Shown here one piece after another: positions 12 through 17,372 of a stretch of DNA of 64,000 nt (within the stretch, counting starts at the first letter, position 1; each line of letters begins with the position of its first letter). The translations under genes and the position numbers were made by a program. Under the pieces are notes generated by a model that worked only from the letters and a program-made list of their open reading frames with translations, was not told the DNA's origin and searched no databases. The DNA is taken from sequence record OL770073.2; one strand, 5' to 3'. This stretch comes from Escherichia phage vB_EcoM-RPN226.

Positions 12-1214
12 ATGAAAGTATGCATTTTTATGGCTCGAGGTCTTGAAGGTTGTGGTGTAACTAAATTTTCTCTTGAGCAACGTGATTGGTTTATTAAAAA
101 TGGTCATGAAGTAACTTTGGTTTATGCTAAAGATAAATCATTTACCCGTAATTGCGCGCATGATTATAAATCATTTTCAATTCCGGTTTTATTGGCAAAA
201 GAATACGATAAAACACTTAAACTGGTAAATGATTGCGATATTCTAATTATCAATTCAGTTCCTGCTACTTCAGTTGAAGAAGACACGATTAATAATTATA
301 AAAAAATTATTGATAACATTAAACCTTCGGTTCGTGTTGTAGTTTATCAGCATGACCATTCTTCTCTTTCTTTACGCCGAAATTTGGGATTAGAAGAAAC
401 TGTTCGTCGAGCTGATGTTATTTTTAGTCATTCTGATAATGGCGATTTTAATAAAGTTTTAATGAAAGAATGGTATCCAGAAACAGTTTCTCTGTTTGAT
501 GATATTGAAGAAGCACCGACCGTATATAACTTTCAGCCTCCTATGGATATTGCGAAGGTTCGATCAACCTACTGGAAAGATGTTTCTGAAATTAACACGA
601 ATATCAACCGTTGGATTGGTCGTACGACTACATGGAAAGGCTTTTATCAGATGTTTGATTTTCACGAAAAACATCTTAAACCTGCAGGACTAAGTACTGT
701 TATGGAAGGTCTGGAACGTTCTCCAGCGTTCATTCCTATTAAAGAAAAAGGAATTCCATACGAGTATTATCGTCTTCATCAAGTAGACCAAATTAAAATT
801 GCTCCTAATTTGCCAACGCAAATTCTCGACCGTTATGTAAATAGCGAAATGCTTGAACGTATGAGTAAATCCGGATTTGGTTATCAGCTGAGTAAATTAG
901 ATAAAAAATATCTACAACGTTCTTTAGAATATACTCATCTCGAGCTTGGTGCATGTGGAACAATTCCGGTATTTTGGAAATCTACTGGCGAAAATTTAAA
1001 ATTCCGTGTTGATAATACTCCGTTAATTTCTCATGATAGCGGTATCGTTTGGTTTGATGAAAATGACATGGAATCAACATTTGAACGTATTAAAGAACTG
1101 TCATCTGACCGAGCTCTTTATGATCGCGAACGCGAAAAAGCTTATGAATTTTTGTATCAGCATCAAGATTCAAGCTTCTGCTTTAAAGAACAGTTTGACA
1201 TTATTACAAAATAA
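12..1214 (+). CDS. a-gt: DNA alpha-glucosyltransferase (glucosylates HMC-DNA)
   Basis: 400-aa ORF, colinear and near-identical to T4 alpha-glucosyltransferase as recalled (CIFMARGLEGCGVTKFSLEQRDWFIKNGHEV...); ATG with upstream GAGG. Confidence 0.9.
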   Translation: MKVCIFMARGLEGCGVTKFSLEQRDWFIKNGHEVTLVYAKDKSFTRNCAHDYKSFSIPVLLAKEYDKTLKLVNDCDILIINSVPATSVEEDTINNYKKIIDNIKPSVRVVVYQHDHSSLSLRRNLGLEETVRRADVIFSHSDNGDFNKVLMKEWYPETVSLFDDIEEAPTVYNFQPPMDIAKVRSTYWKDVSEINTNINRWIGRTTTWKGFYQMFDFHEKHLKPAGLSTVMEGLERSPAFIPIKEKGIPYEYYRLHQVDQIKIAPNLPTQILDRYVNSEMLERMSKSGFGYQLSKLDKKYLQRSLEYTHLELGACGTIPVFWKSTGENLKFRVDNTPLISHDSGIVWFDENDMESTFERIKELSSDRALYDREREKAYEFLYQHQDSSFCFKEQFDIITK

Positions 1215-9000: not shown

Positions 9001-9042
9001 AAGAGCCTAATAACTCGGGCTATAAACTAAGGAATATCTATG
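9001..9042 (+). promoter_or_regulatory. gp43 translational operator (autoregulatory RNA hairpin overlapping RBS)
   Basis: AGCCU-AAUAACUC-GGGCU hairpin (5-bp stem, 8-nt loop) followed by AAGGAA RBS and ATG; matches the classical T4 DNA polymerase operator. Confidence 0.7.
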
Positions 9043-11736
9043 AAAGAATTTTATATCTCTATCGAAACAGTCGGAAATAATATTGTTGAGCGTTATATTG
9101 ATGAAAACGGAAAGGAACGTACTCGTGAAGTAGAATATCTTCCGACTATGTTTAGGCATTGTAAGGAAGAGTCAAAGTACAAAGACATTTATGGTAAAAA
9201 CTGTGCTCCTCAAAAATTTCCATCAATGAAAGATGCACGAGATTGGATGAAACGAATGGAAGACATCGGTCTCGAAGCTCTTGGTATGAACGATTTTAAA
9301 CTCGCTTATATCAGTGATACATATGGTTCAGAAATTGTTTATGACCGAAAATTTGTTCGTGTAGCTAACTGTGACATTGAGGTTACTGGTGATAAATTTC
9401 CTGACCCAATGAAAGCAGAATATGAAATTGATGCTATCACTCATTATGATTCAATTGACGACCGTTTTTACGTCTTTGATTTGTTGAATTCAATGTACGG
9501 TTCAGTATCAAAATGGGATGCAAAGTTAGCTGCTAAGCTTGACTGTGAAGGTGGTGATGAAGTTCCTCAGGAAATTCTTGACCGAGTAATTTATATGCCA
9601 TTTGATAATGAGCGTGATATGCTCATGGAATATATTAATCTCTGGGAACAGAAACGACCTGCTATTTTTACCGGTTGGAATATTGAGGGATTTGACGTTC
9701 CGTATATCATGAATCGTGTTAAAATGGTTCTCGGTGAACGCAGTATGAAACGCTTCTCTCCAATCGGTCGAGTAAAATCTAAACTAATTCAAAATATGTA
9801 CGGTAGCAAAGAAATTTATTCTATTGATGGCGTATCTATTCTTGATTATTTAGATTTGTACAAGAAATTCGCATTTACTAATTTGCCATCATTCTCTTTG
9901 GAATCAGTTGCTCAGCACGAAACCAAAAAAGGTAAATTGCCGTACGATGGTCCTATTAATAAACTTCGTGAGACTAATCATCAACGATACATTAGTTATA
10001 ACATCATTGACGTAGAATCAGTTCAAGCAATTGATAAAATTCGCGGGTTTATCGATCTAGTTTTAAGTATGTCTTATTACGCTAAAATGCCTTTTTCTGG
10101 TGTAATGAGTCCTATTAAAACTTGGGATGCTATTATTTTTAACTCACTGAAAGGTGAACATAAGGTTATTCCTCAACAAGGTTCGCACGTTAAACAGAGT
10201 TTTCCAGGTGCATTTGTATTTGAACCTAAACCGATTGCTCGTCGATACATTATGAGTTTTGACTTGACGTCTCTGTATCCTAGCATTATTCGTCAGGTTA
10301 ACATTAGTCCTGAGACTATTCGTGGACAGTTTAAAGTTCATCCAATTCATGAATATATCGCAGGAACAGCTCCTAAGCCAAGTGATGAATATTCTTGTTC
10401 TCCGAATGGATGGATGTATGATAAGCATCAAGAAGGTATCATTCCAAAGGAAATCGCTAAAGTATTTTTCCAACGTAAAGATTGGAAAAAGAAAATGTTC
10501 GCTGAAGAAATGAATGCCGAAGCTATTAAAAAGATTATTATGAAAGGTGCAGGGTCTTGTTCAACTAAACCAGAAGTTGAACGATATGTTAAGTTCAATG
10601 ATGATTTCTTAAACGAATTATCGAATTACACTGAATCTGTTCTTAATAGTCTGATCGAAGAATGTGAAAAAGCAGCTACACTTGCTAACACAAATCAGCT
10701 GAACCGTAAAATTCTTATCAACAGTCTTTATGGTGCTCTTGGTAATATTCATTTCCGTTACTATGATTTGCGAAATGCTACTGCTATCACAATTTTTGGT
10801 CAAGTTGGTATTCAGTGGATTGCTCGTAAAATTAATGAATACCTAAATAAAGTATGTGGAACTGATGGTGAAGATTTCATCGCAGCAGGTGATACTGATT
10901 CGGTATATGTTTGTGTAGATAAAGTAATTGAAAAAGTAGGTCTTGACCGCTTTAAAGAACAAAATGATTTAGTTGAATTCATGAATCAGTTCGGTAAGAA
11001 AAAGATGGAACCTATGATTGATGTTGCATATCGTGAGTTATGCGATTATATGAATAACCGCGAGCATCTGATGCATATGGACCGTGAAGCTATTTCTTGC
11101 CCTCCGCTTGGTTCAAAGGGTGTTGGTGGATTTTGGAAAGCGAAAAAACGTTATGCTCTGAACGTTTATGATATGGAAGATAAGCGATTTGCTGAACCAC
11201 ATCTAAAAATCATGGGTATGGAAACTCAGCAGAGTTCAACACCAAAAGCAGTACAAGAAGCTCTCGAAGAAAGTATTCGTCGTATTCTTCAGGAAGGCGA
11301 AGAGTCTGTCCAAGAATACTATAAGAACTTTGAGAAAGAATATCGTCAACTTGACTATAAAGTTATTGCTGAAGTAAAAACCGCGAACGATATAGCGAAA
11401 TATGATGATAAAGGTTGGCCAGGGTTTAAATGCCCGTTCCATATTCGTGGTGTACTAACTTATCGTCGAGCTGTTAGTGGTTTAGGTGTAGCTCCAATTT
11501 TGGATGGAAATAAGGTAATGGTTCTTCCATTACGTGAGGGAAATCCATTTGGTGACAAGTGTATTGCTTGGCCGTCGGGCACAGAACTTCCAAAAGAAAT
11601 TCGTTCTGATGTACTGTCTTGGATTGACTACTCAACTTTGTTCCAAAAATCGTTTGTTAAACCGCTTGCGGGCATGTGTGAATCGGCAGGTATGGACTAT
11701 GAGGAAAAAGCTTCGTTAGACTTCCTGTTTGGCTGA
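9040..11736 (+). CDS. 43: DNA polymerase gp43 (family B, with 3'-5' exonuclease)
   Basis: 898 aa as in T4 gp43; exo motifs (FANCDIEV, YNIIDVES), pol motifs (DLTSLYPS, KILINSLYG, YGDTDS). Confidence 0.97.
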   Translation: MKEFYISIETVGNNIVERYIDENGKERTREVEYLPTMFRHCKEESKYKDIYGKNCAPQKFPSMKDARDWMKRMEDIGLEALGMNDFKLAYISDTYGSEIVYDRKFVRVANCDIEVTGDKFPDPMKAEYEIDAITHYDSIDDRFYVFDLLNSMYGSVSKWDAKLAAKLDCEGGDEVPQEILDRVIYMPFDNERDMLMEYINLWEQKRPAIFTGWNIEGFDVPYIMNRVKMVLGERSMKRFSPIGRVKSKLIQNMYGSKEIYSIDGVSILDYLDLYKKFAFTNLPSFSLESVAQHETKKGKLPYDGPINKLRETNHQRYISYNIIDVESVQAIDKIRGFIDLVLSMSYYAKMPFSGVMSPIKTWDAIIFNSLKGEHKVIPQQGSHVKQSFPGAFVFEPKPIARRYIMSFDLTSLYPSIIRQVNISPETIRGQFKVHPIHEYIAGTAPKPSDEYSCSPNGWMYDKHQEGIIPKEIAKVFFQRKDWKKKMFAEEMNAEAIKKIIMKGAGSCSTKPEVERYVKFNDDFLNELSNYTESVLNSLIEECEKAATLANTNQLNRKILINSLYGALGNIHFRYYDLRNATAITIFGQVGIQWIARKINEYLNKVCGTDGEDFIAAGDTDSVYVCVDKVIEKVGLDRFKEQNDLVEFMNQFGKKKMEPMIDVAYRELCDYMNNREHLMHMDREAISCPPLGSKGVGGFWKAKKRYALNVYDMEDKRFAEPHLKIMGMETQQSSTPKAVQEALEESIRRILQEGEESVQEYYKNFEKEYRQLDYKVIAEVKTANDIAKYDDKGWPGFKCPFHIRGVLTYRRAVSGLGVAPILDGNKVMVLPLREGNPFGDKCIAWPSGTELPKEIRSDVLSWIDYSTLFQKSFVKPLAGMCESAGMDYEEKASLDFLFG

Positions 11737-12305: not shown

Positions 12306-12557
12306 ATGGAAACTTTAGTAGCAGGTTCAATTTTTATGGTTTTAGTTTCAGGCGTGTTGGCTATTATTATATACATGCTTCCGTGGTTCATCGCCTTGAT
12401 GCGTGGGTCAAAATCGACAGTAGGAATCTTTTTCACATCTTTACTGTTTAACTGGTCAATCATTGGTTGGTTTATTACTTTTATTTGGTCAATTGCCGGT
12501 GAAACTAAAAAGTCAACACAGCCAAATCAAGTAATTATCATCAGAGAGAAGGAATGA
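12306..12557 (+). CDS. imm: superinfection immunity membrane protein Imm
   Basis: 83 aa, two hydrophobic helices, matches T4 Imm. Confidence 0.8.
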   Translation: METLVAGSIFMVLVSGVLAIIIYMLPWFIALMRGSKSTVGIFFTSLLFNWSIIGWFITFIWSIAGETKKSTQPNQVIIIREKE

Positions 12558-12703
12558 AAAGCAAAATTTTAGCAGTATTGCTTTTAATCTTGATGATTAT
12601 AATAAGTATATACTATAGCGTAACAGTTCCTCTTATGATTCCGCCACTTATTATAGGTTGGAGTTTATTACTGTTACAAATTAAATATGAATGCATCAAT
12701 TGA
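12554..12703 (+). CDS. small hydrophobic protein (49 aa)
   Basis: hand-translated MKSKILAVLLLILMIIISIYYSVTVPLMIPPLIIGWSLLLLQIKYECIN; ATG overlaps imm stop. Confidence 0.3.
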   Translation: MKSKILAVLLLILMIIISIYYSVTVPLMIPPLIIGWSLLLLQIKYECIN

Positions 12704-12710
12704 GGTTTAA

Positions 12711-13451
12711 ATGATTAACGATTATATGACAGTTGAAGAAATCCGTCTTGATTTGGGTCTTGCATTAAAGGAAAAAGATTTCGTAATTGATAAAACCGGG
12801 GTTAAAACTATTGAAATTATTGGTGCATCATTTGTAGCAGATGAACCTTTTATTTTTGGCGCTCTTAATGATGAATACATTCAACGTGAACTTGAATGGT
12901 ATAAGTCTCAAAGTTTGTTTGTTAAAGATATTCCAGGTGAAACACCAAAGATTTGGCAGCAGGTAGCATCTTCTAAAGGCGAAATTAACTCGAATTATGG
13001 TTGGGCCATCTGGTCAGAAGATAACTATGCCCAGTATGATATGTGTTTAGCTGAACTTGGTCAAAATCCTGATTCTCGACGTGGTATCATGATTTATACT
13101 CGTCCATCCATGCAGTTTGACTACAATAAAGATGGCATGTCAGATTTCATGTGTACTAATACAGTACAGTACCTGATTCGTGATAAGAAAATTAATGCAG
13201 TGGTTAATATGAGAAGCAATGACTGCTGGGCAGGCTATCGTAATGATTATGCGTGGCAAAAATACGTACTAGATAAATTAGTATCTGATTTGAATGCAGG
13301 CGACCCATCACGACAGTATAAAGCAGGTTCTATTATATGGAATGTTGGAAGTCTTCATGTGTACGAAAATCAGTTTTATTTGGTTGACCATTGGTGGAAC
13401 ACCGGTGAAACCCATATTGCTAAAAAGGATTATACTGGAAAATGGAAGTAA
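12711..13451 (+). CDS. 42: dCMP hydroxymethylase gp42
   Basis: 246 aa, thymidylate-synthase-like fold; matches T4 gp42. Confidence 0.95.
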   Translation: MINDYMTVEEIRLDLGLALKEKDFVIDKTGVKTIEIIGASFVADEPFIFGALNDEYIQRELEWYKSQSLFVKDIPGETPKIWQQVASSKGEINSNYGWAIWSEDNYAQYDMCLAELGQNPDSRRGIMIYTRPSMQFDYNKDGMSDFMCTNTVQYLIRDKKINAVVNMRSNDCWAGYRNDYAWQKYVLDKLVSDLNAGDPSRQYKAGSIIWNVGSLHVYENQFYLVDHWWNTGETHIAKKDYTGKWK

Positions 13452-14083
13452 ATGCGCCACATGTTTATAAGTATAAACATCCTAAAACTAAAAAGTGGTA
13501 TATAGGAAGTCATGATGGTCACAACCCGAATTATGATGGTTCGGGTGTAGTTTGGCAACATGCTAAAAAGAAATATGGAATAAAATCCTTTAATAAAGAA
13601 ATATTATATGAAGGACCAATGTTTAGACAGGTTGAAGAAATTATTTTAACTTGTTTAGATGCTGCTAATTGTCCAGATTCATATAATTTAAAGAATGAAG
13701 CATGGGGAGGAAGTTTTCCAGGCAAATTAAATGGAATGTACGGTAAAAAACTATCTCCAGAAGAAAGATATAAGTGCGGAAATGCCTTTCGTGGAATCAA
13801 GCGTCCTGATCATTCTAAAAGAATGAAAGGCGAAGGTAATCCAATGTATGGTAAAAATGAGCAGGCATATGGAATTATAAATCGAGCAAAGGAAAATTCT
13901 GGTAAAACTTATGAAGAAATTTTTGGCGCAGAAAAAGCTAAAATAATTAAAGAAACGATGTCTAAAAATCGTAAAGGAAAACCTCATAATTTGATAGAAA
14001 AAATATGTCCGCATTGCGGACTAAAAGGACGTGGGCCAAATATGACAAGATACCATTTTGACAAATGTAAGGCACTTAAATGA
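13442..14083 (+). CDS. GIY-YIG homing endonuclease (Seg-like, free-standing)
   Basis: N-terminal VYKYKH...KKWYIGSH (GIY-YIG), basic NUMOD-like repeats, C-terminal CPHCG zinc motif; start overlaps 3' end of gene 42. Confidence 0.6.
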   Translation: MEVNAPHVYKYKHPKTKKWYIGSHDGHNPNYDGSGVVWQHAKKKYGIKSFNKEILYEGPMFRQVEEIILTCLDAANCPDSYNLKNEAWGGSFPGKLNGMYGKKLSPEERYKCGNAFRGIKRPDHSKRMKGEGNPMYGKNEQAYGIINRAKENSGKTYEEIFGAEKAKIIKETMSKNRKGKPHNLIEKICPHCGLKGRGPNMTRYHFDKCKALK

Positions 14084-14922
14084 TTCAATTCGTAATTCCA
14101 AGTTATCAACGCGTAGGGGCAGTTTCTGCCCTTGATATGTTTCCATCTGATTATGAACCTCATATTGTAGTACGTAAACACGAAGAAAAAGCTTATTATG
14201 ATGCTTATGGGTCTAGAGCTAAAATTATAACTATTCCTGATGATGTTAATGGAATTGCTGGTACTCGTAAAGCAATTACTGATATGTATGCAGGCCAACG
14301 AATCTGGATGATTGATGATGATACTACTATTCGTATGAGTTCAATGCGAAAGAAAGATGATCGTCGCTGCGTAGATAAAATTAATCAATTAACTCGTGAA
14401 CAGTTCTATGAATTGATTCAATACGTTGAAGATGCAATGGATTGTGGGTATTATCACGGTCATGCTCGTCTACCTATTTTTAAAATTACTTCATCTTGGG
14501 GTAATTATCGTGAAAATTCATATGGATTCACGAATACCTGGTATGACCTCGGAAAACTTACAACAGAACAAATTGGGTATGGAAAAATTGATTTATGCGA
14601 AGATATGTATGCATTTCTCAATTTAATTAATCAAGGTTATCCGCATTTGGCCTTGTTCAAATATCTGGTTGTGTCTGGAAAAGCACAAGCTCCAGGCGGA
14701 TGTAGTTCAATTCGTAGTAATTCAAAACATAATAGAGCTCTTGAGCAAATCAATAGAGAGTTTCCAGAGCAAGCTCGTTGGAAAACATCGAATATTGAAA
14801 AGAGAAAATCGTTGGGCGAAGAAGACGAGCCATTAAAGGTTCTTCGCATGTGTGTTTCGCGCAAAGAAAAATCAGAAGCGTTTCATAAGTTTAATGCTAT
14901 TCATCCAATAGCAGTCGATTAA
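14080..14922 (+). CDS. GT-A type glycosyltransferase at the beta-gt locus (candidate HMC-DNA glucosyltransferase, not T4 beta-gt)
   Basis: 280 aa; VIPSYQR near N-terminus and WMIDDD (DxD) motif; occupies slot between 42 and uvsX. Confidence 0.45.
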   Translation: MIQFVIPSYQRVGAVSALDMFPSDYEPHIVVRKHEEKAYYDAYGSRAKIITIPDDVNGIAGTRKAITDMYAGQRIWMIDDDTTIRMSSMRKKDDRRCVDKINQLTREQFYELIQYVEDAMDCGYYHGHARLPIFKITSSWGNYRENSYGFTNTWYDLGKLTTEQIGYGKIDLCEDMYAFLNLINQGYPHLALFKYLVVSGKAQAPGGCSSIRSNSKHNRALEQINREFPEQARWKTSNIEKRKSLGEEDEPLKVLRMCVSRKEKSEAFHKFNAIHPIAVD

Positions 14923-14947
14923 TGCCTAAATTTATTGTGTTATAATT
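14920..14947 (+). promoter_or_regulatory. putative middle promoter upstream of uvsX
   Basis: MotA-box-like ATGCCTAA about 12 bp upstream of TATAAT; approx coordinates. Confidence 0.35.
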
Positions 14948-14999
14948 ACTCTATCTTTAACCAGTGAGGAAAATATAATGATGCCTATGGAAAAAATGA

Positions 15000-15929
15000 A
15001 TGTCTATTGCAGATTTAAAATCCCGTTTGATTAAAGCTTCCACTTCTAAAATGACTGCTGAACTGACTACATCTAAATTCTTTAATGAAAAGGATGTAAT
15101 CCGTACAAAAATCCCAATGCTCAATATCGCTATTTCCGGCGCGATTGATGGTGGTATGCAGTCTGGTTTAACTATTTTTGCAGGTCCTTCTAAACACTTT
15201 AAATCAAATATGTCTTTGACTATGGTTGCGGCGTATTTGAACAAATATCCTGACGCGGTTTGTCTATTTTATGATAGCGAATTTGGTATTACTCCAGCTT
15301 ATTTGCGATCCATGGGAGTTGACCCGGAACGAGTAATTCATACGCCAATTCAGTCAGTTGAACAGCTGAAAATTGATATGGTGAATCAGCTTGAAGCTAT
15401 TGAGCGCGGTGAAAAAGTTATTGTATTCATCGACTCAATCGGTAATATGGCTTCTAAGAAAGAAACGGAAGATGCCTTGAATGAAAAATCTGTGGCAGAT
15501 ATGACTCGTGCTAAATCACTGAAGTCATTATTCCGTATTGTTACTCCTTATTTTAGTATTAAAAACATTCCATGTGTTGCGGTTAACCATACAATTGAAA
15601 CAATTGAAATGTTTAGTAAAACCGTGATGACAGGTGGTTGTGTTATTGCTGGTACTAAAATCCAGATGTCCGATGGTTCTACTAAAGCAGTTGAAGATAT
15701 TCGCCCGGGTGAACGTGTTAAAACCATGGTCGGTGATAATGAAGTAACTTATGTTTGGGACCCCGAAACTCTGGCTGAAGGTACTCCTGAATGTTTCGAA
15801 ATTGAATTCGAAGACGGTTATAAAGTAACTACTTCTAATACTCATAAATTTCTGGTAATGGTTAAAGACATTCCAACGTGGGTTGAAGCTAAAGACTTAG
15901 TAGCCGGTATGGATTGTGTTGTAAGGTAA
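15000..15929 (+). CDS. uvsX: UvsX recombinase N-terminal part (213 aa) fused to N-terminal half of a split intein (96 aa)
   Basis: residues 1-213 colinear with T4 UvsX up to KTVMTGG; then CVIAGTKIQMSDGS (Hint block A, Cys1) and TTSNTHKF (block B); stop at 15927. Confidence 0.85.
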   Translation: MSIADLKSRLIKASTSKMTAELTTSKFFNEKDVIRTKIPMLNIAISGAIDGGMQSGLTIFAGPSKHFKSNMSLTMVAAYLNKYPDAVCLFYDSEFGITPAYLRSMGVDPERVIHTPIQSVEQLKIDMVNQLEAIERGEKVIVFIDSIGNMASKKETEDALNEKSVADMTRAKSLKSLFRIVTPYFSIKNIPCVAVNHTIETIEMFSKTVMTGGCVIAGTKIQMSDGSTKAVEDIRPGERVKTMVGDNEVTYVWDPETLAEGTPECFEIEFEDGYKVTTSNTHKFLVMVKDIPTWVEAKDLVAGMDCVVR

Positions 15930-16829
15930 ATAAATATGGATACCGGACTAATGTATATTTTGAGGTATCCATATGAATTTTGTCTACAAAATCGTGTTCA
16001 ACAATAGAATTAAAGAAAACACTCCACCGTTTTACTACATAGGAAGCAAAACGAACGCTTCCTATGTAGATGGTAAGATTATAGATTCCAATGGTCATGA
16101 GTACTATGGTTCATCGAGATATCCCGGATATTATGATTTTATCGATAATGTTACGGTGGAAATACTTGAACAATTCGATGAGATAGAACACGCCGAACTA
16201 TTAGAGCGTGAAAATTTTTATCAGAAACAAGTAAAAGTTAAAACAAATCCAGATTATTTTAATTTGGATTATGCATGCGGACATAATTCATATGCTAATT
16301 CTGATTTTGCGTCGTACAAGCATCATATAACAGGCAAATGTATTCGTCTTGAAAGAAACCATCCTCTTGTTAAATCGGGAGAATATGTTGGCGTCACAAA
16401 AGGCGCGAAATGTTCTGATGCTCATCGTAAGCTCATATCAGAAGCTATTACTGGAGAAAACAACGGTTTCTATGGTAAGAAACATTCTAAAGAAACCCTC
16501 GATATAATAGCAGAAAAGGCAAAGAAAAGATTAAAGCATTCCCATCCTAGACAAAAAGGTGTTATTATAAACGGTATTGAATATCGTGGTGTCCGTCCTG
16601 CTGCAAGAGAACTAGGAATTAATCCTAATACAATTATCCGCAAGATTAAAACTAACACTAAAGGCTGGGCTTATGCGGCACAGTGATATTATTAAACTAG
16701 CTACTACGAAACACAAGGTAAAGTATGAAAATTAAATCTGTTAAATCTGTTGGTAAAAAAGAAGTCTATGATTTGTCTGTTGCTGACGTAGAGCATTATG
16801 TTTTAGAAAATGGTATCGTTACACACAAC
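15639..16829 (+). mobile_element. split intein plus embedded free-standing homing endonuclease gene interrupting uvsX
   Basis: N-intein 15639..15926, HEG 15973..16686, C-intein 16725..16829; exteins rejoin to a 393-aa UvsX. Confidence 0.75.
15973..16686 (+). CDS. GIY-YIG homing endonuclease (free-standing, between the two uvsX pieces)
   Basis: own RBS (TGAGGTA) and ATG, different frame from uvsX; FVYKIVF...PFYYIGSK GIY-YIG motif; NUMOD-like FYGKKHSKETL; C-terminal HTH-like GINPNTIIRKIK. Confidence 0.65.
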   Translation: MNFVYKIVFNNRIKENTPPFYYIGSKTNASYVDGKIIDSNGHEYYGSSRYPGYYDFIDNVTVEILEQFDEIEHAELLERENFYQKQVKVKTNPDYFNLDYACGHNSYANSDFASYKHHITGKCIRLERNHPLVKSGEYVGVTKGAKCSDAHRKLISEAITGENNGFYGKKHSKETLDIIAEKAKKRLKHSHPRQKGVIINGIEYRGVRPAARELGINPNTIIRKIKTNTKGWAYAAQ

Positions 16830-17372
16830 ACAGGCGTAATGTATTCGGCTGATACCGTATTCATTATCGGTAAACGTCAGATTAAAGATGGTTCTGATCT
16901 TCAGGGGTATCAATTTGTTCTAAATGTAGAAAAATCTCGTACCGTTAAAGAAAAAAGTAAATTCTTTATTGATGTTAAATTTGACGGTGGTATCGATCCT
17001 TATTCTGGATTGTTAGATATGGCTCTTGAATTAGGATTTGTAGTAAAACCTAAAAATGGTTGGTATGCTCGTGAATTTCTTGACGAAGAAACCGGTGAGA
17101 TGATTCGCGAAGAAAAATCTTGGCGTGCAAAAGATACCAACTGCACTACATTCTGGGGTCCTTTATTTAAACATCAACCATTCCGAGATGCTATTAAACG
17201 TGCTTATCAGTTAGGTGCTATTGATAGTAATGAAATTGTTGAAGCTGAAGTTGATGAATTGATTAACTCAAAGGTTGAAAAATTTAAATCTCCAGAAAGT
17301 AAAAGTAAATCAGCAGCTGATTTAGAAACTGACCTAGATCAGTTAAGTGATATGGAAGAATTTAATGAATAA
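16725..17372 (+). CDS. uvsX: C-terminal half of split intein (35 aa) fused to UvsX C-terminal part (180 aa)
   Basis: MKIKSVKSVGKKEVYDLSVADVEHYVLENGIVTHN (blocks F/G ending His-Asn) then Thr+1 and TGVMYSADTVFIIGKRQ... colinear with T4 UvsX C-terminus; own RBS. Confidence 0.85.
   Translation: MKIKSVKSVGKKEVYDLSVADVEHYVLENGIVTHNTGVMYSADTVFIIGKRQIKDGSDLQGYQFVLNVEKSRTVKEKSKFFIDVKFDGGIDPYSGLLDMALELGFVVKPKNGWYAREFLDEETGEMIREEKSWRAKDTNCTTFWGPLFKHQPFRDAIKRAYQLGAIDSNEIVEAEVDELINSKVEKFKSPESKSKSAADLETDLDQLSDMEEFNE

Follow-up and report, generated by a model that had tools for sequence, protein, structure and literature searches.

Organization of the Locus

The window analyzed here is a 64,000-nucleotide stretch of the genome of Escherichia phage vB_EcoM-RPN226 that contains, in this order, gene 43, imm, gene 42, an open reading frame (ORF) of 213 amino acids (aa), a glycosyltransferase gene, uvsX, and then genes 40 and 41. 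Gene 43, which encodes DNA polymerase, occupies positions 9040..11736. Gene 42 (12711..13451, plus strand) encodes a dCMP hydroxymethylase of 246 aa, with 227 of 246 residues identical to those of T4 gp42, and supplies hydroxymethyl-dCMP. The glycosyltransferase ORF (14080..14922, plus strand) starts with ATG and codes for a 280-aa protein that carries the motifs VIPSYQR (residues 5 to 11) and WMIDDD (residues 76 to 81), exactly as the original prediction for this DNA had stated. That prediction also mentioned a T4-like alpha-gt gene; it is indeed present at 12..1214 (plus strand) and encodes an alpha-glucosyltransferase of 400 aa (PF11440, E = 1.2e-235; PHROG 2888). Both partners that make the acceptor, gene 42 and alpha-gt, are intact in the window.

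The 213-aa ORF (13442..14083, plus strand) encodes a Seg-type GIY-YIG homing endonuclease (PHROG 314, E = 6e-31) with 33% identity to T4 SegA (E = 5e-9). It is inserted exactly at the junction of gene 42 with the glycosyltransferase gene, and start and stop codons overlap at either end; its stop codon and the glycosyltransferase ATG share the sequence ATGA, the same overlap that connects gene 42 to the glycosyltransferase gene in phages without the endonuclease. Seventy-eight phage records have the endonuclease at this site; T2, T6, Shigella phage SF2-1, and NR1 lack it. The closest alleles of the glycosyltransferase gene come from the endonuclease-free phages SF2-1 and P922 (99.2% nucleotide identity), whereas the endonuclease carrier vB_SsoM_113 is more distant (97.6%), and the region is therefore mosaic. 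The endonuclease ORF is a neighbor of the modification genes that stands outside the modification pathway.

On the other side of the glycosyltransferase gene, uvsX (15000..17372) is a "fractured gene," divided into two ORFs by a split intein whose halves flank a free-standing homing endonuclease gene. The first ORF (15000..15929) encodes UvsX as far as ...FSKTVMTGG and then the N-terminal half of the intein (CVIAGTK...VVR, about 96 aa). The free-standing homing endonuclease, which has a NUMOD3 motif (PHROG 314/7504), is encoded at 15973..16686, and the second ORF (16725..17372) encodes the C-terminal half of the intein (MKIKSV...IVTHN) and the rest of UvsX (TGVMYSADTVF...). The break falls exactly between GGG and TGP of T4 UvsX, and the sequence obtained by joining the two halves has matches to the inteins of Npu DnaE (E = 1e-5), gp41-1 (E = 6e-4), and Pho RadA. 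The endonuclease between the halves was considered as a possible relative of T4 SegA, which cuts uvsX, and was rejected as such (best E, 0.9). The whole arrangement is present in only 8 of the 597 phage records with a match to uvsX, and six distinct phages have it (BYEP01, ELT1, pSe_SNUABM_01, SYGD1, SP21535, and HY03); more distant versions are found in phages of Salmonella, Klebsiella, and Enterobacter. The eight records annotate only two recombination proteins plus an endonuclease, and we found no publication on a split intein in the UvsX of such phages. The type of arrangement is that of Dassa et al. 2009 (PMC2677866).

The original prediction assigned the glycosyltransferase to the slot between gene 42 and uvsX. 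This position is right, but the slot also houses the homing endonuclease ORF, and uvsX itself is split. The homing endonuclease gene in front of the glycosyltransferase gene and the fractured uvsX are more unusual than the glycosyltransferase gene.

In positions 12500..15200, promoters and terminators are no richer than in shuffled sequence. The sole terminator-like hairpin on the plus strand in this segment lies inside the glycosyltransferase ORF, at 14114..14134 (codons 12 to 18). It is GC-rich (GGGGCAG-TTT-CTGCCCT), is followed by a T-rich stretch, and is invariant in T2, T6, and SF2-1, though nearby synonymous sites vary. The record of Yersinia phage fPS-2 has a "terminator" feature for the glucosyltransferase gene (g041c) within the matched region. 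RNA folding of the 121 nucleotides around the hairpin (14050..14170) is unremarkable (z = -0.57).

Family Assignment and Phyletic Distribution

The 280-aa protein matches the "TET-associated glycosyltransferase" (TAGT) domain (Pfam ID PF20691) with 38.3 bits, against a curated gathering cut-off of 27.5 bits, and covers profile positions 2 to 205 of 205. It also matches PHROG 842, "beta-glucosyl-HMC-alpha-glucosyltransferase," at E = 2e-88. A comparison with the T2/T6 enzyme of this name, as proposed in the original prediction, revealed identity at 275 of 280 positions (98%) with the g-gt protein of T2 (GenBank accession number MH751506) and at 272 of 280 positions (97%) with that of T6 (MH550421). 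The protein of SF2-1 is identical at all 280 positions, and the NR1 TAGT is identical at 275 of 280 (98%), with five differences that are all conservative and none of which affects an invariant position. In T2, T6, SF2-1, and NR1, the gene occupies the same locus, abutting gene 42 and upstream of uvsX. The near identity with the T2 and T6 proteins, combined with the shared locus, indicates a true ortholog rather than a mere likeness. Thus, with a probability of about 0.93, ORF 14080..14922 encodes the second DNA glucosyltransferase of this phage and is orthologous to the T2/T6 gene for beta-glucosyl-HMC-alpha-glucosyltransferase, an enzyme that also goes by the names g-gt, beta-alpha-GT, TAGT, and glucosyl-DNA beta-glucosyltransferase. 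Winkler and Rueger reportedly cloned the T2 and T6 versions of the gene in 1993.

The protein is unlike T4 beta-gt, as the original prediction had it: the best blastp hit between the two has an E value of 3.3, and there is no match to PF09198. A homolog of T4 beta-gt was not found in the 64-kb window (tblastn best E, 0.86), and its presence elsewhere in the genome, of which the window is only 64 kb, would be highly unusual.

A megablast search with the glycosyltransferase gene retrieved 479 phage records; the match is full length in 474, and identity is at least 90% in all but 5. The carriers are nearly all T4-like phages of Escherichia, Shigella, Yersinia, Salmonella, and Citrobacter, and in many of them the gene is annotated as beta-glucosyl-HMC-alpha-glucosyltransferase. 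The combination of either alpha-GT or beta-GT with TAGT has been described as the usual state, and among 753 phage genomes that encode glycosyltransferases, only 6 have the T4-type pair of alpha-GT and beta-GT (PMC13216743). TAGT at the beta-gt site is therefore the norm in most T4 relatives, and its finding here is right but ordinary. The gene does not encode a new enzyme; the inferences of the original prediction are correct and had already been published in work of 2024 to 2026, which covers the replacement of beta-gt in its slot by a nonhomologous gene, the GT-A fold of the enzyme, its disaccharide product, and the bearing on host defenses. The value for annotation is that the phage is classed as T6-type (alpha-GT plus TAGT), not T4-type; the gene as such adds no new biology.

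Conserved Motifs, Selection, and Predicted Fold

In an alignment of 11 family members, reaching down to 29% identity, invariant residues are found in three segments. In VIPSYQR (14092..14112, plus strand), which corresponds to the first β-strand and loop of the GT-A nucleotide-binding half (strand E3-7 in the structural model), residues I6, P7, S8, Y9, and R11 are invariant. In WMIDDD (14305..14322, plus strand), the DxD motif for binding of metal and nucleotide-sugar that follows strand E74-77 in the model, M77, D79, D80, and D81 are invariant. The third segment is the E174-D175 pair (14599..14604, plus strand) within CEDMY, with which helix 174-184 of the model begins. Here D175 is invariant, and the conservation of E174 is 90% or more; analogy with GT2 enzymes suggests the pair as a candidate catalytic base for a GT-A enzyme of the inverting kind. 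The window ORF is full length, and every invariant residue is present in its product.

Compared to its counterparts in T2, T6, and ELT1, the glycosyltransferase gene shows 34 to 40 synonymous and 6 to 12 nonsynonymous differences, with dN/dS ratios of 0.03 to 0.08. The comparison with SF2-1 shows seven synonymous differences and no replacements. These values show an intact gene under strong purifying selection. The low dN/dS, together with the hundreds of matching records, nearly all of them full length, means that the ORF is not a chance product.

An AlphaFold2 model built from the 11-sequence alignment (mean pLDDT, 80.3; pTM, 0.81) has a GT-A fold, as the original prediction had proposed, and is poorly defined only at residues 131 to 149, a low-confidence loop. 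The structures nearest to it are mostly inverting GT2-like enzymes. No solved structure of the family was found in a PDB sequence search with the protein (best E, 0.75), so the fold rests on prediction. Modeling of the T6 TAGT in a 2026 paper likewise yielded a GT-A enzyme, sister to GT2 (PMC13216743). We can thus assign with confidence a predicted GT-A fold with a DxD motif to the product of this ORF.

Predicted DNA Modification

In the proposed pathway, gp42 would make hydroxymethyl-dCMP, so that hydroxymethylcytosine (hmC) enters DNA in place of C. After replication, the alpha-GT encoded at 12..1214 would put glucose in alpha linkage on duplex hmC, and TAGT would then extend this glucose by another one, taken from UDP-glucose and joined through a beta-1,6 linkage, yielding gentiobiosyl-hmC. 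Forming a beta-1,6 linkage from UDP-alpha-glucose implies inversion at the anomeric carbon; an inverting GT-A enzyme, as suggested by the mostly inverting GT2-like neighbors of the model, fits a product with this linkage. In this scheme, the product chemistry and the phenotype of the T6 deletion come from the literature, and gene identity, predicted fold, motifs, partners, synteny, and selection come from sequence analysis. The transfer of glucose by the window enzyme to alpha-glucosyl-hmC, which would give gentiobiosyl-hmC, is supported indirectly, by analogy with its close relatives.

The relevant nucleoside compositions are available for several phages. In T2 DNA, alpha-glucosyl-hmC accounts for about 70% and gentiobiosyl-hmC for 5%; in T6 DNA, the respective values are about 3% and 72%, and bare hmC makes up about 25% in both phages (PMC11078745; bioRxiv 10.64898/2026.02.25.707755). 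In T6 without g-gt, gentiobiosyl-hmC is lost and about 75% is alpha-glucosyl-hmC (bioRxiv 10.64898/2026.02.25.707755). In the Durham Collection, nucleosides have been analyzed for ten wild Tequatrovirus isolates with alpha-GT plus TAGT and without beta-GT; gentiobiosyl-hmC was found in all ten, at about 40% or about 67%, and beta-glucosyl-hmC in none, with about 40% gentiobiosyl-hmC in group iii and about 70% in group iv (PMC13390438). The same authors noted that the position of TAGT is syntenic with that of T4 beta-GT, and the DNA of NR1, one of the ten isolates and a member of the group with the higher level, consists by HPLC/MS of about two-thirds gentiobiosyl-hmC and about one-third hmC, with no beta-glucosyl form (PMC13390438). 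How far the second glucosylation proceeds differs between phages whose enzymes are almost identical, and it cannot be read off the sequence. Since the NR1 TAGT differs from the window protein at only five positions, T6-like DNA is the best prediction. The absence of beta-gt from the window, with alpha-gt and gene 42 intact, also leads us to expect a T6-like pattern free of beta-glucosyl-hmC. We infer that the virion DNA of phage vB_EcoM-RPN226 would have T6-like proportions, with about two-thirds gentiobiosyl-hmC, about one-third bare hmC, and little alpha-monoglucosyl-hmC.

The unlikely, though not negligible, alternative is that the enzyme is the T2/T6 ortholog but a weak one, as in T2, so that the DNA would be mostly alpha-monoglucosylated with a few percent of gentiobiosyl-hmC. 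At 98% identity to the window protein, the T2 protein still produces only about 5% gentiobiosyl-hmC, so identity alone sets no level. However, T2 has His at residue 11, whereas the window protein has Arg11, like the enzymes of T6 and NR1, both with about 70% gentiobiosyl-hmC, and all ten Durham isolates with alpha-GT plus TAGT fall at 40 to 67%. It is far less probable that the enzyme uses a different sugar or a different acceptor, such as bare hmC, and produces a modification absent from T2 and T6. TAGT members do occur with alpha-GT, with beta-GT, or alone, and their specificity varies (PMC13216743), but the window protein is only five to eight residues away from the T2, T6, and NR1 enzymes, and its alpha-GT partner and gp42 are of the T-even type. 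Just as improbable is a decaying or nonfunctional remnant: two public T6 records contain lesions in g-gt, which indicates that loss of the gene may be tolerated, but here the full-length ORF retains all the invariant residues, the dN/dS is low, and the protein has stayed identical to that of SF2-1 despite the synonymous differences between the two genes. We therefore retain the reading of the ORF as a functional second glucosyltransferase of the T2/T6 type.

With respect to residue 11, His is found in both independent T2 records (MH751506 and AP018813), and Arg is found in the window protein, T6, SF2-1, ELT1, and NR1. Two pattern scans of IMG/VR yielded no His11 alleles and three Arg11 alleles, with these three sequences only. 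Judging from the sequences, His11 may be the cause of the low level (about 5%) of gentiobiosylation in T2. A broader proposal, tentative and in our view somewhat doubtful, is that natural variation in TAGT, notably Arg11 versus His11, sets the level of double glucosylation and that phage vB_EcoM-RPN226 is of the "high" type. If the Arg11/His11 reading is true, the modification pattern would be predictable from the genotype, and so would the sensitivity to Brig1 and BapA/Brig3, which attack alpha-glucosyl-hmC.

The two T6 records each have a different lesion in g-gt. In MH550421, CAG is replaced by TAG (amber) at codon 10 (Q10), and the gene is annotated from Met20; in AP018814, one GAT is lost from the GATGATGAT run that codes for the DDD motif. 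Each lesion is at a critical site. They could be laboratory-stock mutations or artefacts of sequencing or assembly at modified cytosines or at the triplet repeat; either is surprising in the very phage that sets the standard for high gentiobiosylation. The annotated ELT1 gene of 786 nucleotides was considered as another lesion and rejected: the full 843-nucleotide ORF is intact, and the shorter version reflects only a choice of start codon.

Implications for Host Defense

Purified Brig1 degrades DNA with alpha-glucosyl-hmC but spares T6 DNA; in vivo, however, Brig1 still strongly restricted T6 infection (PMC11078745). BapA does not remove glucose from gentiobiosyl-hmC, whereas GmrSD and BrxU cut all forms (PMC11078745; PMC13390438; PMC13216743; bioRxiv 10.64898/2026.02.25.707755). 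Assignment to the T6-type class, as delineated from T2, T6, and the Durham phages, predicts gentiobiosyl-hmC plus about one-third bare hmC, and thus DNA that would be spared by purified Brig1 and BapA but would still be open to attack by GmrSD/BrxU-type enzymes and by Brig3, an hmC glycosylase.

Comparison with Known Systems

The cellular GT2-like GT-A enzymes WrtF, AvpGT, TarS/TarP, and K4CP share only 8 to 17% identity with the window protein, and they modify glycans or teichoic acid rather than DNA. What sets TAGT apart from them is a C-terminal region of its own (residues about 200 to 280) and the low-confidence loop at residues 131 to 149.

The T2 and T6 g-gt proteins, at 97 to 98% identity, are like the window protein in length, location next to gene 42, alpha-GT partner, and motifs. 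They differ from it by five to eight substitutions, including His11 in T2 versus Arg11 here, and their genomes have no homing endonuclease gene at gene 42 like the one found in the window.

T4 beta-gt (PF09198) occupies the same slot between gene 42 and uvsX and, like the window enzyme, uses UDP-glucose as the donor, forms a beta linkage, and targets phage DNA (PMC13216743). However, the two proteins show no sequence similarity, and T4 beta-gt has a GT-B fold, in contrast to the GT-A fold predicted here. T4 beta-gt acts on bare hmC and forms a monoglucoside, whereas the window enzyme, by analogy with its orthologs, would use alpha-glucosyl-hmC as the acceptor and produce a disaccharide. The surroundings differ as well: the T4 order is 42, b-gt, segA, uvsX, with segA on the opposite side of the glycosyltransferase slot, whereas in the window one endonuclease gene precedes TAGT and another one is located inside uvsX. 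The glycosyltransferase slot is thus bracketed by mobile endonuclease genes, which might promote exchange of the modification gene.
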